A stretch of 64,000 nt of DNA, taken from a virus. Below are positions 14,711 to 32,601 of this stretch, one piece after another. The stretch lies in the IMG/VR virus record IMGVR_UViG_3300022902_000004, positions 254,268 to 318,267 of that record; one strand, written 5' to 3'. A model generated the notes under the pieces. It made no database searches. It had not been told where the DNA came from and was given only the letters and a program-made list of their open reading frames with translations. Numbering within the stretch: position 1 is the first letter of the stretch; the number at the start of each line of letters is the position of its first letter. The position numbers were made by a program, and so were the translations under genes.

Positions 14711-15049
14711 TTATACTCGCCCGGGTGAGCGCACAGGTTTTCCAAGATACAACGTTGTCTCGGGATCGAATTGGTTATTGTTCCACCAGTGCTCATTAGG
14801 GATTTCCATATCAGTCGGGTAAATCACGGCAGGCAGGAAATACCTTTCTCCGTTTTCACGGGTTTGATGATCCCGATGACGCATGTGGTTTTTCCAGTAA
14901 TTGATAATGCCGAAGGTATCGACGAGGATGTATTGAGATACGGCTTTCAAAATCAGGATTGCATCATCTGTTTGAGCGTCGTTTTTGATTTCAACGATGT
15001 CCTCGGTCCCGAGAAGTCGTGTAACTGATGTGAGTTGTTCGGCTGTCAT
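14711..15049 (-). CDS. MTPxQ-leader superfamily protein (MTAEQLTSVTRLLG)
   Basis: Family D N-terminal helix. Confidence 0.55.
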   Translation of the reverse strand: MTAEQLTSVTRLLGTEDIVEIKNDAQTDDAILILKAVSQYILVDTFGIINYWKNHMRHRDHQTRENGERYFLPAVIYPTDMEIPNEHWWNNNQFDPETTLYLGKPVRSPGRV

Positions 15050-15273
15050 TAGAGCTTTTTCCGGATGTCGCTATGCTTCCACATGGAGTCTGTAGGTGAC
15101 TGAGTTCCCAGACCATACCCTCGTTTGTGATCCCACCCACTTCGGTAGCCTTCTTCCCAGCCTGCCCTGACGAGGGCACGAAGGCGCTCGATTTCAAGAT
15201 CCCGGGCCGTAATGTGAGCTTCAGCCTCAATGAGGCGCGCCTGAAAGTGAACCGCAACGGTGTTATTGCTCAT
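15049..15273 (-). CDS. hypothetical coiled-coil protein
   Basis: Trimmed to MSNNTVAVHF with a GGAGAAAC RBS. Confidence 0.45.
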   Translation of the reverse strand: MSNNTVAVHFQARLIEAEAHITARDLEIERLRALVRAGWEEGYRSGWDHKRGYGLGTQSPTDSMWKHSDIRKKL

Positions 15274-15493
15274 CTGTTTCTCCTGTTTCCTTGGTGACCA
15301 CACTTTGAACTTCGTGGGTATCGATCCAGATATGGTCGTAACATGGGCCTTTCTCGCTCTCACACATACCGCTCCAGCCTCGAGGACTGAATTTGTCTTT
15401 GCGGATATCAGCGGCCTCGGGGTTGTCGTAAACAGCAACGATGTGGGAGCCTTCCCAGTCATTCCCGCCCATCACGATCCAAACGGTATTCAT
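15263..15493 (-). CDS. hypothetical protein
   Basis: Trimmed to MNTVWIVMGG with a GGAGGAA RBS. Confidence 0.5.
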   Translation of the reverse strand: MNTVWIVMGGNDWEGSHIVAVYDNPEAADIRKDKFSPRGWSGMCESEKGPCYDHIWIDTHEVQSVVTKETGETDEQ

Positions 15494-15720
15494 TCTGATT
15501 CCTCCACAACTTTCCATTCACAAACATTCTTCTTGGCAACACCGTCTTTGCAGGCACATGCCTCACGAGCAGCTTTCCACTCACCTTGATAAGGGGTGCA
15601 CACGATGTCACAGACTTGCTTATTGGAGTGAGCTTCGCCTGCTGTTAGCGCGGCACCTCCAACAAGAGGTGCGCAGCATACGACTAACAGGTAGAGAAAT
15701 AATTTGGCGTAGTCATTCAT
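15490..15720 (-). CDS. secreted Cys-rich small protein (signal peptide)
   Basis: N-terminal hydrophobic LFLYLLVVCCAPLVGGAA and 8 Cys. ATGA overlap. Confidence 0.5.
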   Translation of the reverse strand: MNDYAKLFLYLLVVCCAPLVGGAALTAGEAHSNKQVCDIVCTPYQGEWKAAREACACKDGVAKKNVCEWKVVEESE

Positions 15721-15742
15721 TTACATTCCTCCGGAAAAATTT

Positions 15743-16018
15743 CTAGGATTTCCCGAACTTGGCCAGGCGAGCCCGCCCAGTATCGGTGATGTAGACCCTT
15801 TCCTGCTTCTTGGTCCAGTAGCCATACTCAATTCCCTGCATCCTGCACCAGGGGTTGCCTCCACCATGGAAGTACCAGCCATAATGAAGCGACGCACCCT
15901 TGACGAGGGGTTTCCCGTTTCGAAACATCAGCAAACGCTGGACGTCGGCAGCTTTGATGCCAGGGGTGCCCTCGATGGTGGTCAGGATATATTTCAGGTT
16001 CTTATGATTCTTTGCCAT
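15743..16018 (-). CDS. hypothetical protein
   Basis: Trimmed to MAKNHKNLKY with a GGAGG RBS. Confidence 0.5.
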   Translation of the reverse strand: MAKNHKNLKYILTTIEGTPGIKAADVQRLLMFRNGKPLVKGASLHYGWYFHGGGNPWCRMQGIEYGYWTKKQERVYITDTGRARLAKFGKS

Positions 16019-16033
16019 GATGGCCTCCAACAT

Positions 16034-16342
16034 TCAAGCGCCCGGTTCATCCCGTTCGCATATACATTGTACCACACTTGGGTGCATTTTACACGTGCTG
16101 GGCCGCAAGGCTGCTTCAAAATCATATTCTGCGTCATCCATGGTTTCATAGGACACATTCAAAACCTTGATGCCTTTCTTGTCGTAGTGAGCCGCCGAGC
16201 CGAGCGGGTGAACTGCGACTCGACCATTGCAAAGTTCCAACCACCACACGGGTTCATAATCGATCTGCGGCCACTCATCCATGTGCGTAACATAACCGGT
16301 GCCGACCATTTTGGTGACGATGGTGAGTTGTTCAGGTGACAT
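16034..16342 (-). CDS. MTPxQ-leader superfamily protein (MSPEQLTIVTKMVG)
   Basis: Trimmed; family D. Confidence 0.5.
   Translation of the reverse strand: MSPEQLTIVTKMVGTGYVTHMDEWPQIDYEPVWWLELCNGRVAVHPLGSAAHYDKKGIKVLNVSYETMDDAEYDFEAALRPSTCKMHPSVVQCICERDEPGA
16048..16095 (-). promoter_or_regulatory. repeated early-promoter cassette (variant TGGTACAAT)
   Basis: catcccgttcgcatatacattgtaccaca ... ttttacacg. Confidence 0.4.
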
Positions 16343-16598
16343 AAGTGTCTTCCCAGGTACGACGCAAGGCAAGCTTAAAGTCATACCACTTATCGTTCAT
16401 CCGCCCATAAGCAATAATGCTAATCCGATCACCCTCGAAATCATAGTGTTCTGCAGACCCGTTTGGGTAAATGTCGACGTGGCCGTTTTCAAGACGAATC
16501 GTCATGACGGTACCAGTTGTATAATCGAAGGTTTCCATTTTAAGTACAAGTCCGGTGCCGACCATTTTCGTCACGATGGTGAGTTGCTCCGCGGTCAT
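16332..16598 (-). CDS. MTPxQ-leader superfamily protein (MTAEQLTIVTKMVG)
   Basis: Family D; tandem with neighbours. Confidence 0.55.
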   Translation of the reverse strand: MTAEQLTIVTKMVGTGLVLKMETFDYTTGTVMTIRLENGHVDIYPNGSAEHYDFEGDRISIIAYGRMNDKWYDFKLALRRTWEDTYVT

Positions 16599-16804
16599 TG
16601 ATCGTTCCCGACTTCAGAATAAACTTTGTGGCTGGCAACGAATTCGCCATCAGGACCCCAGTGCAACCAGTCGCCTCTGCGACTAACATCAATATGATCA
16701 CCGGCACATGAGATTACGGTGGTAAATTCATGTGCACTGTCGATGCTTTTCACATTGAATTTGCTCATGAGCTTTGTAACAGTGGCCAGTTCTTGCATGG
16801 TCAT
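16595..16804 (-). CDS. MTPxQ-leader superfamily protein (MTMQELATVTKLM)
   Basis: Family D; ATGA overlaps. Confidence 0.5.
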   Translation of the reverse strand: MTMQELATVTKLMSKFNVKSIDSAHEFTTVISCAGDHIDVSRRGDWLHWGPDGEFVASHKVYSEVGNDQ

Positions 16805-17022
16805 TTGGTTTCCTGCATTGCCCAGGCGGTATATTCAATTAGGGTGCTCCCAGGTTTCGGCATGCCTTCGGCATCCTTCGGTCGAACACCGAGTCGAAGC
16901 TCGATAACATCCATGGCCCTGGCGGTATTGTCACCGGTGGCCAATGAAGGTGTTTGCAACACTTGAAAGGCAGACAGCAATTGAAGCAATTCCATGATGC
17001 CTTTAGGAGGAACGGTTTTCAT
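16801..17022 (-). CDS. hypothetical protein (73 aa)
   Basis: ATGA overlap. Confidence 0.4.
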   Translation of the reverse strand: MKTVPPKGIMELLQLLSAFQVLQTPSLATGDNTARAMDVIELRLGVRPKDAEGMPKPGSTLIEYTAWAMQETK

Positions 17023-17031
17023 AACAAAGCC

Positions 17032-17304
17032 TCAGGAAATTTCTGGAAGAACTGTGGCACGAAAGGCGACCCAGCCCGGAATCTCCTGGTAGCAGTCCTT
17101 ACGCGGGTTGCGCAGCTCGATCTTGAAGCCGACCTTGTAATCAAGCTTGGTCCCCATGACAGCATAGGCTTTGTCTCGAGCCTTGCGCGGCGTGGGCGGC
17201 GGGCCATCGACGGTGATGAGATACTCAAGGACGTACTTGCCCTTGTCGCTGTCATCTCGGCGGGTGTGAACGTCATACACATATTTGATTAGTTTAGCTG
17301 TCAT
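17032..17304 (-). CDS. hypothetical protein
   Basis: Trimmed to MTAKLIKYVYD with a GAGGAAATCACA RBS. Confidence 0.45.
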   Translation of the reverse strand: MTAKLIKYVYDVHTRRDDSDKGKYVLEYLITVDGPPPTPRKARDKAYAVMGTKLDYKVGFKIELRNPRKDCYQEIPGWVAFRATVLPEIS

Positions 17305-17554
17305 TGTGATTTCCTCGTTGTACGTAGAGCTTGACAATTGTTTCGCTGGCCGGCTCATCGCCATTCCAAACAATAAATCCTGGGCGGACCTCAACATGCG
17401 GGTAGCCTTCACCCTCATACAAAGTTCGCTGAGAATAGATGGTCTGGCCAGCCCACCTGCGGTGGCTGCCTTGATAGTGGCGCCATTTTTCCCGGATGTG
17501 TTTGTAGAATTCGCGAGTGCTGCCGCAATCTTTTTTGTATTGACGGTTTTTCAT
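17294..17554 (-). CDS. hypothetical protein (86 aa)
   Basis: AGGAGAAAACC RBS. Confidence 0.5.
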   Translation of the reverse strand: MKNRQYKKDCGSTREFYKHIREKWRHYQGSHRRWAGQTIYSQRTLYEGEGYPHVEVRPGFIVWNGDEPASETIVKLYVQRGNHNDS

Positions 17555-17564
17555 GGGTTTTCTC

Positions 17565-17786
17565 CTAGAAAGGTGCCGGGGCTGTATGGGTGATTACATG
17601 GACATTACCGTTACCCCGGGGTTCGAAATATTGGGCACGACCGTCTTCAAAGACATTGGCAAACCCACCGCGAGTAAAGTGAACCTCAACCCGGGTACCC
17701 ATGTCTGGTGGATGAACCATTTTCGAGATTTTATACAGGCCTATCATCTTTGTGATTGTGACCAGTTGTCTCGGTGTCATGGGCAT
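17565..17786 (-). CDS. MTPxQ-leader superfamily protein (MTPRQLVTITKMIG)
   Basis: Family D. Confidence 0.5.
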   Translation of the reverse strand: MPMTPRQLVTITKMIGLYKISKMVHPPDMGTRVEVHFTRGGFANVFEDGRAQYFEPRGNGNVHVITHTAPAPF

Positions 17787-17800
17787 GGTTTACACGTTTC

Positions 17801-18055
17801 CTAAGAGGCGAGGAAGTCGTCCAGGCTGATTTGGCTGGTGATGGTCAGGCGTTCCAGCAGCTGGCGTGGCGCATGATGATGGCGGCCGTTGTAGGTTTCG
17901 AAGTGCTCAGCGCGGCCGTCAGGATGAACATTGACATGGCCGGCCTCAAACATCATTGATATGAACCCGCCCACACTCGGGTGGGCTGTGAACATCTCGG
18001 TGACATCACCTGTGAAGAGCAACTTTGTTGTGATTGAGAGCTGGGCGGCGGTCAT
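17801..18055 (-). CDS. MTPxQ-leader superfamily protein (MTAAQLSITTKLL)
   Basis: Family D. Confidence 0.5.
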   Translation of the reverse strand: MTAAQLSITTKLLFTGDVTEMFTAHPSVGGFISMMFEAGHVNVHPDGRAEHFETYNGRHHHAPRQLLERLTITSQISLDDFLAS

Positions 18056-18088
18056 TGCGATTTTTCTCCCGAGAATTTTTTGCGAGCC

Positions 18089-18463
18089 TTAGCCTTTTAC
18101 AGCACGAAGGGCAGCACCATTTCCGTTGTCGCGGTCGTACCAGCGTGGATCGAAGTCTGAAGAATCTCCGGTGAACCTGACCTTCATAATCTTTCCGTGG
18201 AGATAGTCGAAGTATACCTCGTCGACGCCCTCCTCATAGAAACCCTCGTCAGTCCAGTGGACCTTGCGGGTGTGGCACTCAATTTCTGTTGCCGCCTCTG
18301 CCTCGGTCATGACACCTGCCTTGGCCTGCAGGAAGCCCATTCCCTGGACCTTGGAGGCGTTGTAGAGCCGGGCGACAGTCTCGGCGATCGTCAAGCCCGT
18401 GTCGGTGATCATGTGTGCGTGCTCTTCTTTGGTGATATTTGACATAGTGTTCTCTTGGTTCAT
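18089..18463 (-). CDS. hypothetical protein
   Basis: ORF 18089..18622 trimmed to MNQENTMSNITKEE. The N-terminal Gly/Pro-rich part is translation of a GC-rich hairpin region. Confidence 0.5.
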   Translation of the reverse strand: MNQENTMSNITKEEHAHMITDTGLTIAETVARLYNASKVQGMGFLQAKAGVMTEAEAATEIECHTRKVHWTDEGFYEEGVDEVYFDYLHGKIMKVRFTGDSSDFDPRWYDRDNGNGAALRAVKG

Positions 18464-18479
18464 AGTGGTACTGTTGCGA

Positions 18480-18625
18480 ATATTTCTCAAAAAATTTTTG
18501 TTCGACTTGGGGCCAGGCCCACGAGCCCCCAGAAGTACACTGAGTAGGGGGCCTTTTTTGGGGGCCTTTTTGGGCCCCATTTGAGGGGCCCTTATGCACC
18601 CCCCTTGCAGGTGAACCTGCACCCC
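18480..18625. repeat. GC-rich hairpin / G5C2-T5 tandem repeat cluster (candidate terminator for plus-strand transcripts)
   Basis: gggggccttttttgggggcctttttgggccccatttgaggggccc plus tgcaggttcacctgca palindrome. Unique composition in the window; no promoter cassette here. Confidence 0.45.
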
Positions 18626-18626
18626 C

Positions 18627-18872: not shown

Positions 18873-18910
18873 GTTATTCTCCAACCGTGTGCACTTCAGC
18901 GCTGACCAGC

Positions 18911-19144: not shown

Positions 19145-19217
19145 GGCGTCTCCAGCGTTTCCCGTCGACCAACCCGGCCAACATATCTATTGTATCACGT
19201 TTTGATGGCTCTTACAT

Positions 19218-19391
19218 GCAGGTTTTTTCAATTGACCGAGCCTGTAACACGTAGTTGACAATCCTAACAACGTCGTCGGCGCTGCAACCGAGCGCCAGCA
19301 GCTCACCGCAAACAGCAGGTGTCACAGCCTCCAGGTCATCGCCGAGCTTATCACACATCTCGTTAATCAAATCAAGCATCACTTCACCCAC
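19218..19391 (-). CDS. small paralog family B protein (MLDLINEM), 57 aa, below the ORF-track threshold
   Basis: Manual translation MLDLINEMCDKLGDDLEAVTPAVCGELLALGCSADDVVRIVNYVLQARSIEKTCM; flanked by two promoter cassettes. Confidence 0.45.
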
Positions 19392-19481
19392 CGTTTCCCG
19401 TCGACCAACCCGGCCAACATATCTATTGTATCACACGTGAACGTGCTTTACACGTGAACGCATACCACAAAAAACGCAACC

Positions 19482-19924: not shown

Positions 19925-20146
19925 TTATACCACGCTTTTGGCCTGTTTTACACGTGCTGCATAAATTAAATGCCTGGCCCATTCGATACCTTCTGCCTTG
20001 GCAACTAGTTTGGCTGCCTTAGCATCAAGCAAAGGTGAATCACCACAGCTCCGACGTGATCTATAGATAAGCTGCTGGGCTTCATGCGATAGGCGGCGTG
20101 CCTCTGCAAACATGGCGTTGTCAATGGCGTCGATTTCAATCTTCAT
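19925..20146 (-). CDS. hypothetical helical protein
   Basis: 73 aa; stop in the promoter cassette. Confidence 0.45.
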   Translation of the reverse strand: MKIEIDAIDNAMFAEARRLSHEAQQLIYRSRRSCGDSPLLDAKAAKLVAKAEGIEWARHLIYAARVKQAKSVV

Positions 20147-20147: not shown

Positions 20148-20351
20148 TTATTTACTCGCGTGGATGACGATCAAACCGCCAATGGCACAGTGTCGATGGG
20201 AATACCAGTTGTCCCGGGCCGCCAGGCTGTTGATAAACTCAACAACGTCGTCGGCATACATTTGGCTGGGGAACTGGACCATCCAGACTTCACTGTCGTC
20301 TGAGGTCACCCCGCCGTACTCTTTACAGATATCGTTGATGAGCTTAAACAT
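20148..20351 (-). CDS. small paralog family B protein (MFKLINDICKEYGG)
   Basis: Family motif. Confidence 0.5.
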   Translation of the reverse strand: MFKLINDICKEYGGVTSDDSEVWMVQFPSQMYADDVVEFINSLAARDNWYSHRHCAIGGLIVIHASK

Positions 20352-20356: not shown

Positions 20357-20557
20357 TTACACCTCAAACTTGATGACAATCAAATAGTCGAAGAAGCAGT
20401 GTCGTTCTGCATGGTATGGACTGACAACACCATTGACAAACTCGATGATGTCGTCGGCATCTTCCTGACTGGCAAACTCCACAGTCCAGGTGTGACTCGT
20501 CACTTGCTCAATGGCACCACCGAATTCTAGAATCATCTCGTTAATCAATTCAAACAT
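20357..20557 (-). CDS. small paralog family B protein (MFELINEMILEFGG)
   Basis: Trimmed; ATGA overlap with 20550. Confidence 0.5.
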   Translation of the reverse strand: MFELINEMILEFGGAIEQVTSHTWTVEFASQEDADDIIEFVNGVVSPYHAERHCFFDYLIVIKFEV

Positions 20558-20756
20558 TGATTGACTCCAGGGCACGCTTGTTTGCCAGGTATGAACCGAG
20601 GAGCACGTTGTCTTCGGCATCGTCGACCTTATGCAGGAGTTGGACCGCCTGACTTCGAGTGCCATCGCGATGTGACTCCACCGACTGGCAGTATTTGATG
20701 AGCGCCTTCTGAAGGATTGCCAACTCGTCAAGCGAAAGTTCAAGCGTGGTTTTCAT
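20550..20756 (-). CDS. hypothetical protein
   Basis: Trimmed to MKTTLELSLDEL with a GGAGTGACC RBS. Confidence 0.5.
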   Translation of the reverse strand: MKTTLELSLDELAILQKALIKYCQSVESHRDGTRSQAVQLLHKVDDAEDNVLLGSYLANKRALESINV

Positions 20757-20820: not shown

Positions 20821-21057
20821 TTACACGTTGCCGATGACCTTCTCCCGGATTGATTCCAGGCTGCGCATCTTGGCTTTCAAAGTGTCGACGATGTCCTGTG
20901 CTTCGACTGCGCAGCCGATACCATCACCGGCTTGTCGACGACTTGCTATGTCGTTGCGGTCGACGGCAGCCTGGTGTTGAAGGAACACTGTACTGTCGGC
21001 TTCATCAAGCATCCAGAGTAGGTGTGTCTGCTCGTCGGCTGTGAACTTGCTGGTCAT
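20821..21057 (-). CDS. small paralog family E protein (MTSKFTADEQTHLL)
   Basis: Trimmed; paralog of 21876..22094. Confidence 0.5.
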   Translation of the reverse strand: MTSKFTADEQTHLLWMLDEADSTVFLQHQAAVDRNDIASRRQAGDGIGCAVEAQDIVDTLKAKMRSLESIREKVIGNV

Positions 21058-21160
21058 GGCGGCTCCGTTTGGTGGGCCGGTTATCATCCCCGGCAACATA
21101 TACATTGTATCACACGTGAACGTGTTTTACACGTGAACGCATACCATGTTTGAGGCCGTT

Positions 21161-21364
21161 TTACACGCGGGTGACCAGTTTCATCTCATCTTCATAAATA
21201 ATAATGCCTGAACGACCATTGATTAGCACGTGATATCGTGACACTCCGCCCGCACGTCTGAGTCCTAGCAGAGCCGTGATAATTCCAATATCGCCGCGAC
21301 CTATAGGCCCTATTCCAACCCGACGGAAATCACGAGTGGTTTCAACCAAGTCACCTTTTTTCAT
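21161..21364 (-). CDS. small paralog family A protein (MKKGDLVETT)
   Basis: Family motif. Confidence 0.5.
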   Translation of the reverse strand: MKKGDLVETTRDFRRVGIGPIGRGDIGIITALLGLRRAGGVSRYHVLINGRSGIIIYEDEMKLVTRV

Positions 21365-21596: not shown

Positions 21597-21869
21597 TTAG
21601 GTTACTTTCCCCGGGGTGGGTTGCTCGATTTGTACACCATTTCTAAACCACCCATCATGTTCCGGTCCCCAGCCAAATACTGCCGGCCCATCATCCAGGT
21701 GCTTGTTACCATCCTTGTAATGAATTGTAGTCCCATCAAGCCATGCCCATAGTTCAAACCTGCCTGCTGCATATGAATCATGTCGCCCGCTTGAATAGGG
21801 TATAACGCGGTCTGCACCATGGGCATTCATGAATTTGATGATGGCAACTGTTTGTTCTGGTGTGTACAC
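21597..21869 (-). CDS. MTPxQ-leader superfamily protein (FMNAHGADRV variant)
   Basis: MYTPEQTVAIIKFMNAHGAD ... DGPAVFGWGPEHDGWF. Confidence 0.5.
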   Translation of the reverse strand: MYTPEQTVAIIKFMNAHGADRVIPYSSGRHDSYAAGRFELWAWLDGTTIHYKDGNKHLDDGPAVFGWGPEHDGWFRNGVQIEQPTPGKVT

Positions 21870-21875: not shown

Positions 21876-22094
21876 CTATTGCTGCTTGCCACAGTTATCG
21901 ATTACCTTTTGGCGTGCTGACTCTAGGACAACCAATTCGGCCTCCAGGCGTTCAACCTCACGTGCAGCACGCAATGACTGGGTCTGACTGCACACCACGG
22001 TGGCGATACGCAGGTGATCCTCGAGGTACTGTTTCGAAACTTCAAGTGCACCCAACAAAGTGTCTTCTTCATTAGGGGTGAAATAGCCAGTCAT
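21876..22094 (-). CDS. small paralog family E protein (MTGYFTPNEEDTLL)
   Basis: Trimmed; AGGAG RBS. Confidence 0.5.
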   Translation of the reverse strand: MTGYFTPNEEDTLLGALEVSKQYLEDHLRIATVVCSQTQSLRAAREVERLEAELVVLESARQKVIDNCGKQQ

Positions 22095-22271
22095 GATGAA
22101 CTCCTGTGCACCGGATGGTGTATCCTGCTCGATTCCCGAGCACATAATCATTATAACACGTGGGAACCCTTTTTACACTCGGTGGGCGCACCTTTTGTGC
22201 GAGCTACACAAGAATGCCGGCGGTTATTCACATATATTTCGGCCCAATGGGATCAATGGGTTAGGCGGTGG

Positions 22272-22352
22272 AACGTAAAGGACTGGGTGACGACGGCGGG
22301 CAACGTAAAGGACTGGGTGACGACGGCGGGCAACGTAAAGGACTGGGTGATG
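22272..22352. repeat. tandem direct repeat, 30-bp unit x ~2.7 (aacgtaaaggactgggtgacgacggcgggc)
   Basis: Seen directly in a non-coding stretch. Confidence 0.8.
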
Positions 22353-22491
22353 ATAGTCTAGGTGATGCTTTGGGGTGTAAGCTGTTGATATCGTGTATAA
22401 CAATTTATTTTCATTTATTTTGTTCAAAACAGTGTACACCTGCCCGCGAACGGGCCAAGTCTCCCCACCTCCTGGCTCTCAGTGATACAGC

Positions 22492-22568
22492 GGGCAGGAT
22501 GGGCTGACAGTTGCCTGGTTTGGGCAGGATGGGCTGACAGTTGCCTGGCTTGGGCAGGATGGGCAGGG
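22492..22568. repeat. tandem direct repeat, ~29-bp unit x ~2.6 (gggcaggatgggctgacagttgcctgg(t/c)tt)
   Basis: Seen directly; same non-coding block. Confidence 0.8.
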
Positions 22569-23063
22569 AAACGGTAGACAGAGTGAATCTGAATTGTGTG
22601 TGACCTCGGTGCGCTGACTTTATGAGTGCTGGTGGGCTGATGGGTGAAAGGTGTAGACTCTGTACGTGCACTCTATAGATTAGGAGCCTGAGGTGTGTGG
22701 GTGTGTGTCGTAGTCTGCGTCTATGCTTGCGTAGGTGTTTCTAACCTTTTGATACCTCTGTGGGCGTGCGTGATGGGTGCCGTAGGTTTCAGTATTCATC
22801 GGGTTTCTGTTATTAGTTGTGCCAATTGCACATCTCGGGGCAGAGCCAGGCTGTTCATGACCACAGAGAGCCGGGTTGTCCTGTGAACCAGGGGATTGAC
22901 CGGGTTGTCATGCCTTCAGCCACCATCATGACCCATCTTCTGTGGTCATCTTGTCATAGTCCTGCATACCCTTATAACCATTTGGCATGCTTCAAATCCA
23001 TCGTTCAGTGGACACAGGATGACCCGTGTACGTCCCTAATCATTTCAATGGAGGATACGGTGG

Positions 23064-23402
23064 CTAGAAGGGCAGAAGGTCATCCAAGGTCGGTGTGTAC
23101 CACTCAATCATCATGTCCTTTTCGCTACCATCATCTTCATTGCCCACTAGCGTCATGGTTGTGCGGAACCTGTCGGGCAGGACATCAATGTATTTTTGAA
23201 AATGCATGTTCAGGTTCGGGGCGCAAACCCAGCCACCGCTAGCATTGTGATTGATGTGTGCCCCGAATCCTAGGTCTGCTTCCTTCCAGTCAAACCAAAT
23301 GCCAGCCTCATGTGGTTCGTCACCACCGAGAAACTCCAATGTCGACAGGTCAGGGATGCAACCCATCAGCTTTGTGACGATGACTGTTTGTGCTGGTGCC
23401 AT
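23064..23402 (-). CDS. MTPxQ-leader superfamily protein (MAPAQTVIVTKLMGCIPDLSTL)
   Basis: Trimmed; GAGGAAACACC RBS. Confidence 0.55.
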   Translation of the reverse strand: MAPAQTVIVTKLMGCIPDLSTLEFLGGDEPHEAGIWFDWKEADLGFGAHINHNASGGWVCAPNLNMHFQKYIDVLPDRFRTTMTLVGNEDDGSEKDMMIEWYTPTLDDLLPF

Positions 23403-23716
23403 GGTGTTTCCTCGATTGTCCATACCATGGTTATGTCGCCATCAAGCAATGGCTCAGCATCCGGTCTTTTAAACTCAATCGATGGTGTAATAGACTGTAT
23501 GGCATTGCAATACTTCTCCAATACCGCCCTGCGTCCGGGGTTTGGTACGCTTATCCAGCCTGTCTTGGCTTTATCGCTAATCATCCCAAGCATATTCACC
23601 CCGTCATCCTTCCATATAAGCCATACGGCTTCGGTGTCGTTGGAAACGGTGAGCGTCGACAGGTCTGGGATACAGTTCATGATATGTGTTGCGATATGTG
23701 ATTGTGCCGGTGTCAT
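23366..23716 (-). CDS. MTPxQ-leader superfamily protein (MTPAQSHIATHIMNCIPDLSTL)
   Basis: Family D. Confidence 0.55.
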   Translation of the reverse strand: MTPAQSHIATHIMNCIPDLSTLTVSNDTEAVWLIWKDDGVNMLGMISDKAKTGWISVPNPGRRAVLEKYCNAIQSITPSIEFKRPDAEPLLDGDITMVWTIEETPWHQHKQSSSQS

Positions 23717-23730
23717 TCGATTATCCTTTC

Positions 23731-24117
23731 CTATGCTGCGGTGAAATCATACGGTTCGATGCTCCAGTTCATAACAGAAACCTGCTCCTCCGGATCGGCT
23801 CGTTGCCATACTGCCCCACCCATTTGATTATACCTTGGATGCTCTGGATCATTCTCTGTGCATGCGTCGACGCCACAATCAGCAACGTACGTCATACATT
23901 CATAGCACTTTGCTAATCCAGCCGGTATTCCATCATGTGATCCGTTTGCCGTCACCCAGCCATATGTTGCGTCTTGTTCGATTAACGCCTGCATGTGCAA
24001 GCCGGCATCCACCCATTCACACCACAACTCTCCCTGGCGGATTTCGATGTTTAGTGTCGACAGGTCTGGAATACAGTTCATCAGGCGTGTCAGGATATGT
24101 GATTGTGCTGGTGTCAT
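23731..24117 (-). CDS. MTPxQ-leader superfamily protein (MTPAQSHILTRLMNCIPDLSTL)
   Basis: Trimmed; ATGA overlap. Confidence 0.55.
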   Translation of the reverse strand: MTPAQSHILTRLMNCIPDLSTLNIEIRQGELWCEWVDAGLHMQALIEQDATYGWVTANGSHDGIPAGLAKCYECMTYVADCGVDACTENDPEHPRYNQMGGAVWQRADPEEQVSVMNWSIEPYDFTAA

Positions 24118-24380
24118 GATGTCGTCCCGATGGTACATGATTTAATGTATTTGCCGTGTTCATACCAGGAGCAGGCTCCACCTAAACCGACCACCGCAGG
24201 TCGACCTTTATCTCGATGCTTGTTTCCATGCATGTAATATATCACATGCTCGGCTTGACATTCAATATAGAACGGGCCGGAGTACCACATTGGAGTGCCT
24301 GAAGGAACGGCGACATGGACATTTTCGGCGCCATACTCGTTCATGAACTCGATGACAGCTTTGGTTTGGATGGCATTCAT
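24114..24380 (-). CDS. MTPxQ-leader superfamily protein (MNAIQTKAVIEFMNEYGAENV)
   Basis: Trimmed; ATGA overlaps. Confidence 0.55.
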   Translation of the reverse strand: MNAIQTKAVIEFMNEYGAENVHVAVPSGTPMWYSGPFYIECQAEHVIYYMHGNKHRDKGRPAVVGLGGACSWYEHGKYIKSCTIGTTS

Positions 24381-24745
24381 GATAGCGGATCCTTTGAGAA
24401 CGCGAAACCACAAATCAGCCTGGGTGCTGCCTTATAAACATCATCACCAGGCTGGATTGGGTTCGGTATCATTTTGACTGCGAAATCAGGAGGAAGCTTG
24501 AAATTCATAGAAAGTGTTTCCATGGCATATCTGCTCGTTGTCAGCACAGGCGTTTCTTTATTCTCTATATACCCGCCGCGGCCGCTCTCGTTAATACGAC
24601 CTCGAAGCTTGTTTCCATTGACGCTTTCATATGCAAAAGCGACGCCGGCCTCGGAGAAAAACGTGTTGTCAGTCCAGCGAAATGTCGTCAGGTCTGGCAC
24701 GTTGTCCATGATGCTGATTAGGAGACTCATCTGTTCAGGTTTCAT
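24377..24745 (-). CDS. MTPxQ-leader superfamily protein (MKPEQMSLLISIMDNVPDLTTF)
   Basis: Family D. Confidence 0.55.
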   Translation of the reverse strand: MKPEQMSLLISIMDNVPDLTTFRWTDNTFFSEAGVAFAYESVNGNKLRGRINESGRGGYIENKETPVLTTSRYAMETLSMNFKLPPDFAVKMIPNPIQPGDDVYKAAPRLICGFAFSKDPLS

Positions 24746-25113
24746 GGTGTGTACACCAACGTTGCGTTGGGCGTGTAAAACGTGAAGCCGGTGCCCATTT
24801 TGTTGTTGGCACAGGCGTAATCGTTATAAAGGTGTGTATGAAACGGTTCTGGCATCTTGACTAATTTGGCCAGATCTAAAGCTGTTCCCATTTCCATTAA
24901 CGGCACGTCCCACTCTTCATAGCGAAACTCTCCGCCTGTCGGCTCAATACCAAGTGAAACAAGCACGACCCTTCCTTTGTCATCTTTGAACTCGAACCCG
25001 AGGCGCTCGACTTTCTTGTTTGGCATTGGCATATGTCGCCACTTGAATGAGTCCAAGTAAGGCTCGATGCAGCCCATGATGATGGTTACTGTTTTGGCTT
25101 GTTGTGGTGTCAT
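24742..25113 (-). CDS. MTPxQ-leader superfamily protein (MTPQQAKTVTIIMGCIEPYLDSF)
   Basis: Family D. Confidence 0.55.
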   Translation of the reverse strand: MTPQQAKTVTIIMGCIEPYLDSFKWRHMPMPNKKVERLGFEFKDDKGRVVLVSLGIEPTGGEFRYEEWDVPLMEMGTALDLAKLVKMPEPFHTHLYNDYACANNKMGTGFTFYTPNATLVYTP

Positions 25114-25484
25114 AATGAGTTCCTGGCTCTGCTGCCCATTCGTTCCCCGACAGGTCGAACCGTCTCGAATGTGTCCTTTACTTCATCAATCCAAAATGAC
25201 ATCCAGTTGCCATGGCCACCTTCGGTCATATGGCATCCTGCTGGGCACTCGAGAATGCTCGCGAGTTTGGGGTGTTCATCACTCGGGACGATTGAATGTC
25301 CCTTAGCATATTGAAAGCGTCCGCCTTTCCCATTCGGTGTCACATAGCCCGTAATCAGCCCGTGGTTTAGTGATATGAACTCAAACCAAACGACGTCGCC
25401 ATTCCTACTATCGAACTTCAATGTCGATGCATTAGGAACTACTTCCATAACCCGGGTCATCATCAATGATTGTGCAGGTGTCAT
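25110..25484 (-). CDS. MTPxQ-leader superfamily protein (MTPAQSLMMTRVMEVVPNASTL)
   Basis: Trimmed; ATGA overlap. Confidence 0.55.
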   Translation of the reverse strand: MTPAQSLMMTRVMEVVPNASTLKFDSRNGDVVWFEFISLNHGLITGYVTPNGKGGRFQYAKGHSIVPSDEHPKLASILECPAGCHMTEGGHGNWMSFWIDEVKDTFETVRPVGERMGSRARNSL

Positions 25485-25960
25485 GCTAAATCCCTGTTCT
25501 TGATGACCCGCATGTACCTTTTTTGGAAAGGCGGCTCGATACCCGACGACGTAGCTTCGACCAGCGAGAGGCAAATGTCCGTCTTGCTGTTTGCTGCGAC
25601 AGATTTTGCCATGTCGGCAGCACTTATGAATTGATCCTTTTCATGAAATGAAAAGAATGCATTGCGGGGAACGACTCGAATCTCGCATCCTGATGGGCAA
25701 CCAATGACATCCGCTATCTTACCGACACGTGCGGTGTCTGAGTATCCTGGGCAGGTAAAGCAGCCGCGTGTTCCGCTTGCGTTAATCCGGCCGTCAATCC
25801 TGCCAAACCCGGCCAAATCAAACCTAAAATATATGCTATGATCAGGGACTCCACCGTACCAATCAGCTTCAGATGGGTTGCGGTCCCGCATCTCCAACGT
25901 CGATACGTCAGGAATAGCTTCCATAACCCGGGTCATCATGTGGGCTTGTTTAGGTGTCAT
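25481..25960 (-). CDS. MTPxQ-leader superfamily protein (MTPKQAHMMTRVMEAIPDVSTL)
   Basis: Family D. Confidence 0.55.
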   Translation of the reverse strand: MTPKQAHMMTRVMEAIPDVSTLEMRDRNPSEADWYGGVPDHSIYFRFDLAGFGRIDGRINASGTRGCFTCPGYSDTARVGKIADVIGCPSGCEIRVVPRNAFFSFHEKDQFISAADMAKSVAANSKTDICLSLVEATSSGIEPPFQKRYMRVIKNRDLA

Positions 25961-26297
25961 TGTTTACCAACTCTCTTGTGTGGCGTTGATTGAATAACAG
26001 GAGCTCATAATTGAAGCCCGACTTGAATGGCCAAGTACAAAGTACGCCTGCTGGGACCTCGACATACTGCGTAAACTCGTCCCAGTCGCACGTGTCGCCA
26101 CCAGCTTCATCAAACATGACATAGCCATAGCCTTCCGGTCGGATCCTGCCAACAATCTTTCGACCATCTGGAATCACAAACGAAAACCTGACAGCAACCT
26201 CGCCATTCGTGTCATTGGTTTCCCATGATTCAAATAAGGATATGTCGGGTGCCATTCCCATCGCAATCGTTAGAACCGCTGCCTGTCCTTCTGTCAT
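25950..26297 (-). CDS. MTPxQ-leader superfamily protein (MTEGQAAVLTIAMGMAPDISLF)
   Basis: Trimmed; AGGAGGGGAG RBS. Confidence 0.55.
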   Translation of the reverse strand: MTEGQAAVLTIAMGMAPDISLFESWETNDTNGEVAVRFSFVIPDGRKIVGRIRPEGYGYVMFDEAGGDTCDWDEFTQYVEVPAGVLCTWPFKSGFNYELLLFNQRHTRELVNNDT

Positions 26298-26332
26298 CTC
26301 CCCTCCTTTCACTTATATTATACCACACAGGC

Positions 26333-28249: not shown

Positions 28250-28318
28250 TGTGCTCCTGCCCTTTAGGGTTGCTGTGGAGCCATTGTATCAATGTCGTCC
28301 TGAATGTATTATTCTTTG

Positions 28319-28510: not shown

Positions 28511-28511
28511 G

Positions 28512-28889
28512 TTATTTGTCTTCTCTGGAGTGGATCGACAACCGCTCAGCAATTCGTGCCAACAAAAGCATTCTGTCATGTTGCGTTGGGGAGTAATCGC
28601 CCATTAGCTCTTCTGGGACACCAGCCCATGCACCGCCGTAATACGTTACGTTGTATCCACAATTGATACACTCTTCGTATACTGATTCATATCGCTTTTT
28701 GAGATACCCGAGCCGTGTATAGAAAAACTTGACATGTCCGGCGCCGAGCTTGAATTCTGCAGGCTGGCCTTTAAGGTTGAATTTTCCGCTCACGATGCAA
28801 TTGGGAATTCGCTTCATTTCTCGATGTTCAGCCAGCAAATGCTGCCGCGACAATTCATGGGGCGGAATGCCAACATTAATACGCGTCAT
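28512..28889 (-). CDS. denV: pyrimidine-dimer DNA glycosylase (T4 endonuclease V-like)
   Basis: MTRINVGIPPHELSRQHLLAEHREMKRIP ... GAGHVKFFY matches the T4 DenV N-terminus and core. AAGGAG RBS. Confidence 0.85.
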   Translation of the reverse strand: MTRINVGIPPHELSRQHLLAEHREMKRIPNCIVSGKFNLKGQPAEFKLGAGHVKFFYTRLGYLKKRYESVYEECINCGYNVTYYGGAWAGVPEELMGDYSPTQHDRMLLLARIAERLSIHSREDK

Positions 28890-28899
28890 GATTATCTCC

Positions 28900-29514
28900 T
28901 TATTCGAACTCGTTGTCCAACGTTCCGCAGTGGATTCGAGTGTGGCATGAACTGCACACTGTCACCAGGTTTTCTACCGTGTTGTTCTTCTTGTTCATGT
29001 CTATATGGTGTACGAACAAAAGGAACTTCGAGCCATCATGGGAACACTTCCTACATTTGTGCCCATCACGACGTTTCACCGTGGTCCTGAGCGTAGTCGT
29101 GAACTCGAAGTCATAATCGGCAGCCCCTTCCTTTTCCCACGACCTGCCGTCAATCCAATGGCTGTTCTTTGGGCCCGAGACTCCTCGACCGATGGCTGCC
29201 CGATGTTCTGCGGTTAGCGGTATTCCTTTTTTCGCTTTACTCAGTTTACGCCTGGTCTCTTCCGAAACAGTTTTACCTAGGTGTGCTGCTGCAATGGCTT
29301 TTGACGCGCATTCAGGCGTGCAGCATTTGTTTTGACGCAGTTTGTCAGAACGCCTAACTTCGAACCCCTCTTTGCACCACACGCATATTTTCGTTGAGAC
29401 CTTTCCTTTCTTGTCTTTTGCGCCCCATCTTTTCAGGTTTGCACAAGTTTTAGAACAAAACCGACGTCCTTTGTTTACCACCTCAATGTTGCATCCAATA
29501 AATTCGCACTTCAT
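28900..29514 (-). CDS. HNH homing endonuclease with NUMOD3-like repeats
   Basis: C-terminal HHIDMNKKNNTVENLVTVCSSCHTRIH. Repeats ETRRKLSKAKKG and EHRAAIGRG. GGAGGA RBS. Confidence 0.8.
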   Translation of the reverse strand: MKCEFIGCNIEVVNKGRRFCSKTCANLKRWGAKDKKGKVSTKICVWCKEGFEVRRSDKLRQNKCCTPECASKAIAAAHLGKTVSEETRRKLSKAKKGIPLTAEHRAAIGRGVSGPKNSHWIDGRSWEKEGAADYDFEFTTTLRTTVKRRDGHKCRKCSHDGSKFLLFVHHIDMNKKNNTVENLVTVCSSCHTRIHCGTLDNEFE

Positions 29515-29572
29515 AATAGTCCTCCGACATATAAGTATCGACGGCTATAGTTTAGTGACTAATTTATTTCGA

Positions 29573-30907
29573 CTAGGCAGCATTGACCTGCGTTTTAGGC
29601 CAGCGCATCTGCGCGATTGCATCCCGGCTGTCCTTTTCGAACATCAACTTACGGTCTGGAACAATCATCCAGAGTCGCTTCATAGGTGAAGAGGAAGGCT
29701 TACCAGCTTCTCCATCTGTGATCAAAATGCAGCCGTCAAACTTTGCCTTGTTCGCATTTGCATGTTTGGTAACACACTCGAAATCAGTGCCACCACAGCG
29801 GGTTCGCATAGCCGGGTGACTCTGACCACGCTTCCAAGTGAAGGAGTTCTCAGTATCGACGCTGGTGTCGAAGTGGTATACCGTGAACTCAGTACGACGA
29901 GCCAAACCTTGCAGTTCGCCGTAAATCAAGGACAATGCCCGCTCACAAACCGAACCACTTTGGTCGATGTAAATGGCAACCGAGCTGGTGTACCCACGCT
30001 TTGCACCAGTCGCCAACGGCCCGAAGTCCGGATGAATCATTGTGGTGTTCAAGTGGCTCCACGTCGTAGCGCGAGTGCCTCGACGTGAGAATCCACAGAA
30101 GTTCTTCATGACTCCTTTCCAGTCAACCAAGCGTGAGGTGAGTTCACGGATTCGATTCCGCATCTCAGAACTGACTGTTCCCCACTGGCCACGACGGTCA
30201 GAAGAAGCAGTCGCGTCAGCCACTGCCTTTTGAACCTTGCCTTTGATGAGTGCCTTATCCTCAGCACTCAAAGTGTCCCACAGATCATGAAAGTCCATAC
30301 CCTGAAACCCTAGGCCTTGAAGTCGGGCAGCATTGTTCTCCATAATTTTGACGAAGTACCACTCCGAAGACTTATGCTTCGGGAAGGTTCGAATCAGGGC
30401 GCCAAGCGGAGTCTTTGCGAACTCATCGCTACACGTGCCAGGAATCATGCCACCTTCAGGAAGCTCGATTTCAGGAATATCGGAGTTGATTGCCAAGTCC
30501 TGGGCGATGTTCGAAATCGCATGCGGGTCATGACGCCGAGAAGTACAATGATTGAAAGCCAAGTGGTAACACTCGTGCTTCAGAAGACCGCGAATCTGGG
30601 CATTGGTCAAGGCACTAACGAAGCCGGCATTGATGAGCATGTGAATGTCGCCATTCTTGACCATCACGCCAGCCGTCGGGACCAACTCACTAAACTCGAC
30701 GTTGACAATCCGCATGATACCTGCAAACCATGGCTCGTCGAAAAGCATTTGGGTCAGATAAGGACTCAAGTCCTTCATGTTTTTGATTCGAAGTTCGACA
30801 GCACCTTTCAGCTCTTCAGGCGTCGTAATCGAAATTGCGGAGTCTTTAGAGATTGAGATTGAAGAACCCTCAGGTCCCACCGTGTGTACTTTCGTCATGG
30901 TCATCAT
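29573..30907 (-). CDS. HExxH metallopeptidase-like plus VWA (MIDAS) domain protein; partner of the MoxR-like ATPase
   Basis: HECYHL motif; C-terminal IYIDQSGSV ... GGTDF ... ILITDGEAG. Confidence 0.75.
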   Translation of the reverse strand: MMTMTKVHTVGPEGSSISISKDSAISITTPEELKGAVELRIKNMKDLSPYLTQMLFDEPWFAGIMRIVNVEFSELVPTAGVMVKNGDIHMLINAGFVSALTNAQIRGLLKHECYHLAFNHCTSRRHDPHAISNIAQDLAINSDIPEIELPEGGMIPGTCSDEFAKTPLGALIRTFPKHKSSEWYFVKIMENNAARLQGLGFQGMDFHDLWDTLSAEDKALIKGKVQKAVADATASSDRRGQWGTVSSEMRNRIRELTSRLVDWKGVMKNFCGFSRRGTRATTWSHLNTTMIHPDFGPLATGAKRGYTSSVAIYIDQSGSVCERALSLIYGELQGLARRTEFTVYHFDTSVDTENSFTWKRGQSHPAMRTRCGGTDFECVTKHANANKAKFDGCILITDGEAGKPSSSPMKRLWMIVPDRKLMFEKDSRDAIAQMRWPKTQVNAA

Positions 30908-30965
30908 GTTCGTTTCCTCTTTCCCATCCCGGGAACATATACATTATACCACGAAATGATGACTC

Positions 30966-31424
30966 TTACACGTTACCGAACATTTCTTTGTTGATCAGGC
31001 GACGGGCGTAACTAAGGCCATCGATTTTAGCCGACACCATGGCTGCCCGTTGGAGTTCTGCGGCGGCAACCTCAAGGCTCACGCTTGGGTTCTGGCCGGC
31101 CGCAGCATGTTGTCCTTGTGTCTCAGACAATCGCATACCCTCAGCGAACAAGGCGTTGTCAACGAGGCCAAGATGGGCGTCAGCTTCCATACTCAGCCCA
31201 GCTTTGGTTCGCATGTAGTGTGGGTGGTCGGTAACCTTTTCGATGGTCTCAAGCCAAGCCTCCTTAGCATCAACGACCTTGCCGTGCGGTCCTAGGCTTC
31301 GCTGCCCGCCTGGACCATATTCGTTGGTATAGTGTTCCAATGCGAACTTCAGGTCATCGAGCATCTGGCCGGTAACCGTGATGGTGTATTCAGTATCAAG
31401 ATTCTGTGGTTTCTTGCAGGGCAT
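30966..31424 (-). CDS. hypothetical protein
   Basis: Trimmed to MPCKKPQNLD with an AAGGAG RBS. Confidence 0.55.
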   Translation of the reverse strand: MPCKKPQNLDTEYTITVTGQMLDDLKFALEHYTNEYGPGGQRSLGPHGKVVDAKEAWLETIEKVTDHPHYMRTKAGLSMEADAHLGLVDNALFAEGMRLSETQGQHAAAGQNPSVSLEVAAAELQRAAMVSAKIDGLSYARRLINKEMFGNV

Positions 31425-31438
31425 GATATTCTCCTTGA

Positions 31439-31672
31439 TTACGAACATTTACGAATGGCAACGATTCGGTTGACCACATATTCATGGGGTTTAGCAAACC
31501 AGCCGTCACCGACCAAGCCGATGTGGTGTGTTGCCATCTTGGCATCGAAGTCCGAGACGAACTGAAAGGTCCACTCTGAATCCGGCTCCTGGGGTGTCAC
31601 GTCGCGGCCGATGAAAGCCTCAACAATCTCCTCGATTTCGCCGATTTTCGTCATGTCCATCATGTAAGCCAT
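31439..31672 (-). CDS. small paralog family B protein (SEWTFQFVSDFDAK)
   Basis: Family motif. Confidence 0.5.
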   Translation of the reverse strand: MAYMMDMTKIGEIEEIVEAFIGRDVTPQEPDSEWTFQFVSDFDAKMATHHIGLVGDGWFAKPHEYVVNRIVAIRKCS

Positions 31673-31817
31673 CTTGAACTCCTGTCTCCGTCCCTGCTCG
31701 GGTCACCCCCGAGCACATAAATATTATACCACGTTTTGAGGCATCTTACACGAAACGTAAGTGAAAGTTTCAATTACAAATTAAAGTTTCACTTTCACTT
31801 ACCATAGCGCCTAGGTA

Positions 31818-32078
31818 TCAAAACGTGTTATCAGGTGTCCGCATACTCTTGAGTGCGCGAGCAAGGGACGATCGTTGAACTGCCCAGTATTTAGCATCAT
31901 CGCCATCTGAGTAAAAATTCACATGTCCATCCTTCCAAACGTCTATGGAATCAAAGGCATTGGCATAAACACCTTCCACATGTAACGTTGTGACCTGGTC
32001 GTCAAAGCCGTGTACCATACTGATGATAGTGCAATCATTCATCACCACATTAATCATTCTGAGTTGAATGCTGGTCAT
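31818..32078 (-). CDS. MTPxQ-leader superfamily protein (MTSIQLRMINVVMNDC)
   Basis: Family D variant with DVW.DG motif. Confidence 0.5.
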   Translation of the reverse strand: MTSIQLRMINVVMNDCTIISMVHGFDDQVTTLHVEGVYANAFDSIDVWKDGHVNFYSDGDDAKYWAVQRSSLARALKSMRTPDNTF

Positions 32079-32362
32079 TTCATGCTCTCCGCATCGTGGG
32101 GCTTGACGCGTTCCCAGTCATCATATATCAATTTTGCAATGAGGTTGTGGTTTTGTAACCCGTAAGCGCTAATTGACGAGGAATGATATGCCTCTTGCAG
32201 GCTTGGTTTTCCGTCAAACCAAACATCAATCGCCACAAAGTCTTTCGTCTCTTCAACATCACATTCCAGCGTGATGCAACTCCATCCGGTGTCAAAAACA
32301 ATGTCGAGCACATTGCAGTGCTTCATAATCATGGTTGTGGTTAGGAGCTGCATTTCGTTCAT
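32075..32362 (-). CDS. MTPxQ-leader superfamily protein (MNEMQLLTTTMIMKHC)
   Basis: ATGA overlap. Confidence 0.5.
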   Translation of the reverse strand: MNEMQLLTTTMIMKHCNVLDIVFDTGWSCITLECDVEETKDFVAIDVWFDGKPSLQEAYHSSSISAYGLQNHNLIAKLIYDDWERVKPHDAESMK

Positions 32363-32601
32363 CTGTCATTCCATTCTTGCCAAATCATGATGGGCAGCCC
32401 GGCCGGGACATCTTGCGATTTATTGCCCTTCCAAAATGTAGGTTCACCGTCGGTCCAAACATCGATGGCATCAAAGGAGTTACCAATTGGATCAATACAC
32501 CACAAAGTCACACAGTCACCGGCCTCTGGGTGATCATCGATTTGCGTGATGCTCACGTAACCCATAATGTCTGTCACGGTTGCCAGTTGGTCTCGTGTCA
32601 T
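32359..32601 (-). CDS. MTPxQ-leader superfamily protein (MTRDQLATVTDIMGYV)
   Basis: Trimmed; AAAGGGG RBS. Confidence 0.5.
   Translation of the reverse strand: MTRDQLATVTDIMGYVSITQIDDHPEAGDCVTLWCIDPIGNSFDAIDVWTDGEPTFWKGNKSQDVPAGLPIMIWQEWNDR

Follow-up and report, generated by a model that had tools for sequence, protein, structure and literature searches.

Within a window of 64,000 nucleotides (nt) from an uncultured marine jumbo phage (IMG/VR virus record IMGVR_UViG_3300022902_000004, record positions 254,268 to 318,267; the window is the whole stretch of DNA analysed, and all positions below are window coordinates), we describe a family of 25 paralogous genes, all on the minus strand, which spans 1881-32601 (~31 kb) and makes up about 25 of the 90 genes there (roughly 28%). 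The products are 51-159 amino acids (aa) long, most of them with an acidic isoelectric point (pI), and their hallmark is an N-terminal amphipathic helix of the form M-T-P-x-Q-h-x-h-h-T-x-h-M. Judging from the sequences and from structure models, the family is better described as a small alpha+beta domain, with this helix as its slowest-evolving element, than as a detachable N-terminal module joined to variable bodies. By sequence comparison, it derives from helix-capped MORN-like repeat proteins, of which it is a degenerate branch expanded locally.

Membership, subfamilies and predicted fold

The original prediction, made from the DNA letters, had grouped 24 genes into one superfamily with an unusually conserved N-terminal helix. 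All 24 were recovered as minus-strand open reading frame (ORF) starts with small corrections (6076 becomes 6073, the ATGs at 17786 and 17780 are alternatives, and the start at 21869 is GTG), and the family now counts 25. The regular expression M...Q...[IVLMA][TIS].[LMIVF][MLIV] had 17 minus-strand matches and none on the plus strand. An iterated hidden Markov model (HMM) of the family, searched against 1,542 six-frame ORFs plus reversed decoys, converged on 25 ORFs and no decoys, the added gene being 6318..6073 with a GTG start. Since iterated searches are circular for the sequences on which they were trained, leave-one-out profiles were run at a threshold of E<0.01 for the size of the window ORF set. 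These recovered 23 of the 25 members, the failures being 7364 (E 6.7) and 26297 (E 2.4). The latter is tied by pairwise phmmer to 24745, 25484 and 25960, and therefore 7364 is the sole truly marginal member. A profile of the N-terminal 16 aa alone recovered 19 members. No further members lie in the 10 kb beyond the window start or at 33-64 kb. Reading frames are intact in 24 of the 25 members, and 8697, at 51 aa, is a shortened copy.

Two outcomes had been named in advance as telling against a single family, namely an N-terminal similarity without significance in a proper profile search and a match to a known housekeeping domain. The similarity held in the leave-one-out profiles, and neither a housekeeping domain nor any other curated domain was matched. 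The similarity also lies at the protein level. Identical residues at positions 2-16 use the same codon in 41.9% of paralog pairs, versus 37% expected from codon usage, so the N-terminal conservation is selected in the protein and does not reflect a repeat in the DNA; DNA-level repeats or gene conversion as its source are ruled out by this comparison. The members, named in the text by their start positions, are as follows (all minus strand).

32359..32601 (-): subfamily A', 80 aa; first gene of a three-member operon; leave-one-out E 1e-9; orthologs P0003/P0011 in related phages
32075..32362 (-): subfamily A', 95 aa; ATGA overlap with the upstream member; ortholog 69% identical, dN/dS (nonsynonymous to synonymous substitution ratio) 0.21
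31818..32078 (-): subfamily A', 86 aa; ATGA overlap; dN/dS 0.16
25950..26297 (-): subfamily B, 115 aa; first gene of the nine-gene array; leave-one-out weak, E 2.4
25481..25960 (-): subfamily B, 159 aa; found by regular expression, HMM and phmmer
25110..25484 (-): subfamily B, 124 aa; ATGA overlap
24742..25113 (-): B-like, 123 aa; ATGA overlap; linked mainly via the N-terminus
24377..24745 (-): subfamily B, 122 aa; ATGA overlap; 38% identical ortholog in a relative
24114..24380 (-): subfamily C, 88 aa; one PAV/MORN-like unit; inside the B array; ATGA overlap
23731..24117 (-): subfamily B, 128 aa; ATGA overlap; AlphaFold2 model with predicted local distance difference test (pLDDT) 80 and predicted template modelling score (pTM) 0.75
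23366..23716 (-): subfamily B, 116 aa; found by regular expression, HMM and phmmer
23064..23402 (-): subfamily B, 112 aa; last gene of the array; strain-specific recombination tract at its 5' end
21597..21869 (-): subfamily C, 90 aa; GTG start; non-seed match, E 1.6e-5
17801..18055 (-): subfamily A, 84 aa; non-seed match, E 2.8e-4; leave-one-out E 5e-10
17565..17780 (-): subfamily A, 71 aa; alternative ATG at 17786
16595..16804 (-): subfamily A, 69 aa; leave-one-out E 1.8e-4
16332..16598 (-): subfamily A, 88 aa; ATGA overlap; AlphaFold2 model with pLDDT 81, pTM 0.70
16034..16342 (-): subfamily A, 102 aa; found by regular expression, HMM and phmmer
14711..15049 (-): A/C intermediate, 112 aa; carries an 'FLPAVIYP' unit
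8542..8697 (-): shortened member, 51 aa; the helix is followed by HGAENV and a degenerate PAV unit; leave-one-out E 5.5e-4
7696..7980 (-): subfamily C, 94 aa; found by regular expression and HMM
7023..7364 (-): marginal member, 113 aa; helix motif 'ELITKLMAC'; E 2.7e-11 when in the model, leave-one-out E 6.7
6073..6318 (-): added member, subfamily C, 81 aa; GTG start; identical protein P0033, ortholog P0080
5771..6073 (-): subfamily C, 100 aa; found by regular expression and HMM
1881..2246 (-): subfamily C, 121 aa; ATGA overlap

Four subfamilies were distinguished, whose pairwise links persist after removal of the N-terminus: A (16342, 16598, 16804, 17780 and 18055, with 15049 as an intermediate), A' (32078, 32362 and 32601), C (2246, 6073, 6318, 7980, 8697, 21869 and 24380, each with one 'LPAVxxPNGxxEW' unit) and B (23402, 23716, 24117, 24745, 25113, 25484, 25960 and 26297). 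By phmmer, A, A' and C cluster together and B stands separate, and in a profile-profile comparison of B with the rest only the first 16 residues align (probability 81%, E 1.2e-5).

The two AlphaFold2 models agree in their beginning, a helix and then an antiparallel sheet of four or five strands. The A member is predicted to form a helix at residues 3-12 followed by five strands, and the B member a helix at residues 3-13, four strands, a second helix and two strands, with pLDDT values of 85-96 at residues 1-20 of both models. Within the helix, positions 12 and 13 are hydrophobic in all 25 members and position 9 in 23, whereas the polar positions Q5 and T10 are kept in 22 and 20 members, respectively. 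The T-P-x-Q segment is a standard helix N-capping box. Defined as an M-T/N-P-x-Q-h-x-h-h-T-x-h-M helix followed by beta-strands, the family takes in 23 of the 25 members by leave-one-out HMM. We infer that the helix is a structural cap packed on the sheet rather than a detachable signal. An earlier view of the family as a conserved N-terminal module carrying a hypervariable C-terminus thus stands only in its first half: the N-terminus is conserved, but similarity within subfamilies runs over the whole length, and the models set the helix in a compact, confident alpha+beta domain (pTM 0.70-0.75) with a conserved hydrophobic face. Neither a signal peptide nor a membrane segment was found in the member sequences.

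Operon organisation and turnover

A promoter element was recognised by reading the intergenic regions. If one mismatch is allowed, the sequence GTGGTATAAT is found 26 times in the window (2.3 expected), with 25 of the copies on the gene strand. On the gene strand the element consists of CGTGTAAGA, a 17-nt spacing and TGGTATAAT, with a TG extension; the consensus of the 25 aligned copies reads CGTGTAAGA-N6-AAA-N-CGTGGTATAAT-N-TATATGT. The spacing from GTGTAA to TATAAT is exactly 17 nt in 24 of the 25 copies, and a GC-rich hairpin (GTTSCCGGGG...) lies immediately downstream of promoter copies. By its sequence, the element is a sigma-70-type extended -10 promoter with a conserved, non-consensus -35, in which GTGTAA may be a candidate binding site for a phage factor. 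From this we infer an early or middle promoter that would be read by the host RNA polymerase.

The 25 gene-strand copies are spread over 1-47028 and delimit the transcription units of the small-gene region. Copies directly precede the A' operon (32656) and the nine-gene array (26326), and further copies stand before other member-bearing operons, at 22159, 19933, 16075, 10267, 8403, 7682, 6804 and 3062. Three of them are given here by their extended -10 element.

26317..26326 (-): extended -10 element GTGGTATAAT, promoter of the nine-gene array; TATAAT 17 nt downstream of GTGTAA
32647..32656 (-): extended -10 element GTGGTATAAT, promoter of the three-gene A' operon
6795..6804 (-): extended -10 element GTGGTATAAT, promoter of the operon 6750 / 6318 / 6073

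The array at 23064-26297 had been described as nine consecutive members joined by ATGA overlaps. The nine members are indeed consecutive, but ATGA joins only five of the eight junctions, the rest being two longer overlaps (11 and 37 nt) and a gap of 14 nt. Over the whole family, an ATGA stop/start overlap opens 10 of the 25 members, and 21 of 25 have A as their fourth base, versus 61 of 109 other genes. Because the ATGA overlap favours a threonine (ACN) second codon, the M-T start of the family is partly a by-product of translational coupling. In one strain, a single G-to-A change gives both A2 to T2 in the 23402 gene and a TGA that ends the upstream gene 11 codons earlier.

Identical proteins are found on contigs up to 318 kb, and near-identical genome copies are present in many marine samples. 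A more distant comparison was made with a phage ~78% identical in DNA (loci L006, L007 and L093), with which synteny is kept. The three A' orthologs are 49-70% identical with dN/dS of 0.16-0.40; most neighbouring genes are 77-89% identical with dN/dS of 0.04-0.18. In place of the three members of the A' operon, the relative has six, and its counterpart of the nine-gene array consists of three full genes and a helix-less remnant (9 versus about 3.5); the order of the copies also varies among related phages. These counterparts are 38-67% identical to the closest window genes, and the flanking genes are 82-97% identical.

Recombination is apparent at the strain scale. Strain L002, which is 100% identical over 12.8 kb elsewhere, carries 28 substitutions in a tract of 139 nt (23275-23413) that covers the 5' end of gene 23402, with a proportion of synonymous differences (pS) of 0.395 and a ratio of nonsynonymous to synonymous proportions (pN/pS) of 0.34, and its version of the tract restores the ATGA overlap with the upstream gene. 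The high synonymous divergence indicates that the tract was imported by recombination. Diversity-generating hypermutation was considered for the tract and ruled out, as the substitutions are not adenine-specific and pS is 0.395. Since purifying selection acts on them, the family genes are functional, yet they are fast-evolving, recombining and unstable in number. The likeness to effector arsenals drawn in the original prediction is, on the evolutionary side, matched by this fast divergence and copy-number turnover between related phages.

Relatives and repeat origin

Searched exhaustively with the HMM, a set of 1.84 billion representative proteins yielded 218 matches at E<0.001. The top matches, giant cadherin/Ig-repeat proteins, were dismissed after a Pfam scan as summed weak repeat matches. 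The small relatives align from residue 1, with the helix MTxEQxxxITxLM and the first strands, and then bear 1-5 canonical beta-hairpin repeats of exactly 23 residues (DGPAEIYADGSQVWWLNRQLHRT), 'DGPAVxYxNGxxxWYxNGKxHR'. External proteins with helix and strands comprise P0045, P0047, P0050, P0054, P0058, P0075, P0081 and P0084, further P0106, P0111, P0118, P0137, P0143 and P0150, plus six genes of the 13-kb contig L089. This contig, of a more distant relative, carries a tandem array of six canonical family genes with 4-nt overlaps, P0047 among them, beside a GH25 lysozyme and a CCA-adding enzyme, both of which are also encoded in the window. P0143 lies on a 114-kb contig and adjoins a DUF2201 gene like that of the window.

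Since these outside relatives bear the same helix before 1-5 canonical repeats, the window family reads as a degenerate offshoot of them. Tandem units of ~23 residues with the conserved G, aromatic, G and H that mark MORN repeats are present in the external relatives, subfamily C keeps one such unit, and the predicted strands of the A model follow the repeat pattern. Two earlier proposals hold, namely that the two branches of the family are related and that the second is MORN-like; the PAV unit of the second branch aligns with the canonical repeats of the external proteins. The most economical history is that a helix-capped MORN-like repeat protein was amplified in the phage clade and that the window copies then degenerated. 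On the same account, C would have retained one unit and A and A' a vestige, whereas B would have gained a new tail with an extra helix and two strands.

Taken without regard to the helix, the canonical repeat is widespread: by tblastn, more than 546 stretches of IMG/VR contain it, tandem paralogs being frequent, and it also occurs in the jumbo phages Atu_ph07 and PA5oct. Two unrelated IMG/VR viral contigs (L011 and L012) carry 2-3 tandem canonical DGPAV-repeat paralogs with a common C-terminal 'IEIEGVKYKL' or 'TLEDIAKAMNIDVDKL' tail, and repeat proteins of this class seem generally prone to tandem amplification in phages.

The helix-capped form is narrower, being detectable only in the phage clade of the window and a few metagenomic relatives. 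The N-terminal helix is absent from the best 80 IMG/VR loci, all of which were matched via repeats only, and pattern scans for the helix module gave no match in IMG/VR or in Joint Genome Institute (JGI) metagenome contigs. A B member of the window was not found in IMG/VR, and a word-indexed protein search with the family alignments returned same-clade orthologs only. Against cultured phages, neither a megablast of 12 kb nor a tblastn of a B member gave a match, from which it follows that the phage has no cultured relative there. Among Pfam, PHROG, NCBIfam and PDB-sequence families, none covers the window members or the canonical relatives; fold matches supplied no function for the family, and literature searches found no description of it. 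The Pfam MORN models (hmmscan, E<=1) match neither the window members nor the multi-repeat relatives P0028, P0050, P0054 and P0118, and these four gave only DUF6745 and Tcp10_C in the same scan, weakly and mostly below threshold.

Putative function, neighbouring genes and known systems

Our favoured reading is that the paralogs are diversified small protein-binding modules, each with a different host protein as its target. The host sigma-70 RNA polymerase would read their promoter before the late genes, so that the proteins would be made early or mid-infection and act in the cytoplasm, where binding would serve host takeover or neutralise proteins of defence or toxin systems; host variation would be matched through duplication, divergence and recombination. 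This reading is suggested by the small size, the mostly acidic pI, the lack of a signal peptide or membrane segment and the pre-late promoter, as well as by the descent from a protein-binding repeat, the fast and copy-number-variable evolution, and a non-structural neighbourhood (MoxR ATPase, DUF2201/VWA protein, HNH protein, endonuclease V, CCA enzyme, NAD salvage and purine enzymes). To this statement as a whole, from pre-late expression and a cytoplasmic site to the binding of host proteins in takeover or against defence or toxin proteins, we give about an even chance; our confidence in the descriptive parts of the family account is far higher.

Several points weigh against this reading. 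A generic scan of the window for sigma-70 promoters and terminators showed no enrichment, and the expression timing is taken from the promoter consensus only. The GTGTAA -35 departs from the sigma-70 consensus, and a phage factor could be required for its use, which would place the promoter in the middle class. The homology of B to the rest is based on 16 residues and a similar predicted topology, and the packing of helix on sheet follows from model confidence values and amphipathicity, not from coordinates. Finally, fast evolution and turnover are also seen in dispensable genes under relaxed constraint.

An alternative we regard as unlikely is that the helix is a shared handle, docking every paralog on one common machine (a protease, a chaperone or RNA polymerase) while the sheets pick different targets. 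It would account for a helix far more conserved than the rest in all four subfamilies, for the alignment of B with A/C there and nowhere else, for the success of the 16-aa profile noted above, and for the near-invariance of the polar Q5 and T10. Possible machines are close by, with a phage ClpP-family protease ~7.5 kb beyond the window start and a MoxR-type AAA+/VWA pair in the same region. However, the conserved positions mostly form a hydrophobic face, as core packing predicts, the T-P-x-Q segment is explained as a textbook capping box, the helix sits within a confident compact domain in the models, and a common partner was not identified. In a bolder form, to which we assign a somewhat smaller chance again, the helix would plug a binder library into the phage ClpP-type protease or the host RNA polymerase, and the paralogs would be fast-evolving targeting adaptors with different targets and the same fate.

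The array might also be a decaying by-product of recombination between repeated 5' ends and promoters, its genes being dispensable duplicates under relaxed constraint. The shortened copy 8697, the helix-less remnant in the relative, the copy number varying among relatives and the one marginal member, 7364, are what such decay would leave. Yet dN/dS is 0.16-0.40 for the three measurable orthologs and the ratio is 0.34 within the recombined tract, nearly all frames are intact, synteny is kept at ~78% DNA identity, translational coupling is maintained, and the 5' ends are not DNA-level repeats. We therefore consider general decay very improbable.

Least probable of all, in our view, are virion-packaged internal or ejected proteins, with the helix as a capsid-targeting or packaging signal and the bodies injected with the DNA: conserved N-termini on divergent remainders would fit, and paralogous head-internal protein families do occur in jumbo phages, but no L/I-x-E-type or other conserved protease-type motif was found after the helix in the member sequences (the residues after the B-subfamily 'STL' vary as TLEF, TLTV, TLNI, TFRW, SFKW, TLKF, TLEM and LFES), the helix is modelled inside the fold (pLDDT 85-96), and, more indirectly, the surroundings are non-structural: sigma-70-type extended -10 promoters precede the genes, nucleotide-metabolism and other small genes lie around them, and the 64 kb contain no head genes.

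If the paralogs are indeed binders of host proteins, the array would supply a ready list of candidate anti-defence or takeover factors and, besides, a natural scaffold for small binders. With their defined promoter and coupled translation, the operons lend themselves to testing, given a host or a heterologous system. Apart from function, one family without a name in the databases accounts for about a quarter of the genes in a pre-late region of 31 kb, in a marine jumbo phage that is abundant and uncultured. The family displays gene turnover and recombination at the strain scale and offers a worked example of a repeat protein whittled down and re-elaborated into many small single-domain proteins.

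The window holds further features beside the family. A 912-nt non-coding gap (22152-23063), which may be a replication origin or iteron region, adjoins the end of the nine-gene array. Within it lie an A/T-rich stretch (22403-22421) and two distinct 30-nt tandem repeats, one of 2.9 copies at 22264-22350 and one of 2.4 copies at 22492-22564; the repeat number is strain-variable, and the related phage (L093) has a diverged version of the region. Much of the family region lies between the genes of a MoxR-type AAA+ ATPase and of a DUF2201 protein with metallopeptidase-like and VWA-like domains. The pair also occurs in Vibrio phages, where the DUF2201 protein is labelled an HNH endonuclease, probably a misannotation. 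The same region contains a second, unrelated family of six small proteins with the motif 'MFxLINExCxxxGG...' and three two-member families.

12184-13302 and 29573-30907 (-): MoxR-type AAA+ ATPase and DUF2201 protein
31439-31672, 20357-20665, 20148-20351, 19212-19379, 13515-13781, 707-940: 'MFxLINExCxxxGG...' family
30966-31448 and 19925-20146: two-member family
21876-22151 and 20821-21105: two-member family
21161-21364 and 307-495: two-member family
45351-45710 (-): one-piece transfer-messenger RNA (tmRNA), tag peptide ANDNSEYSYAQAA; ARAGORN and Rfam RF00023 concur (92 bits)
47304-48320, 51558-53968, 54113-55213 (-): nucleotide-metabolism genes, including a short adenylosuccinate-synthetase-like gene that matches the PurZ PHROG
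62172-63734 (-): 520-aa protein with a major-vault-protein shoulder domain, a vault repeat and a weak SPFH/Band 7 match

The PurZ match hints at 2-aminoadenine DNA. Near the adenylosuccinate-synthetase-like gene lie NAMPT and a nicotinamide mononucleotide (NMN) adenylyltransferase-Nudix fusion, both of NAD salvage, and an enzyme of the IMP dehydrogenase/GMP reductase family. The domain set of the vault-type protein is unusual for a phage, and the protein has no PHROG match.

Among known systems, the family resembles the MORN and MORN-variant proteins (PF02493, PF07661), with which it shares a 23-residue period and the G/W/G/H pattern, and the MORN-type 'DGPAV..NG..W..NGK.HR' phage proteins align with the canonical repeats of the relatives and with the single 'LPAVxxPNGxxEW' unit of subfamily C. 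It differs from MORN repeat proteins in that the window members are mostly without recognisable repeats and the C-terminal half of B is distinct. Antitoxin or immunity proteins of the YwqK type, from polymorphic toxin systems, are MORN variants as well, whereas the window family has no NCBIfam match (E<=0.1) and its neighbours are family members and small ORFs of no known function.

The T4 internal proteins (IPI-III) and the inner-body paralogs of phiKZ-type phages carry a conserved short N-terminal segment on divergent small proteins, a likeness that had led to the capsid-targeting sequences being offered as an analogy. The likeness goes no further than this layout, since the window family lacks a conserved cleavage site, has its helix in the predicted fold and lies in a non-structural setting behind sigma-70-type promoters, and the analogy is thus disfavoured.

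Small-domain paralog expansions are already known in jumbo phages, as are MORN-like repeat proteins, which are common in phages; what is new here is the helix-capped unannotated family, its decay from a repeat protein to a single small domain, and its operon organisation. One such expansion is in Bacillus phage G, which has a zinc-ribbon family of roughly 35 copies (PMC7824862). Both systems consist of dozens of diverged copies of one small domain in one large phage genome, with an unassigned role. However, the window family is a helix plus beta-sheet without zinc ligands, and its genes are organised in promoter-headed, translationally coupled operons.

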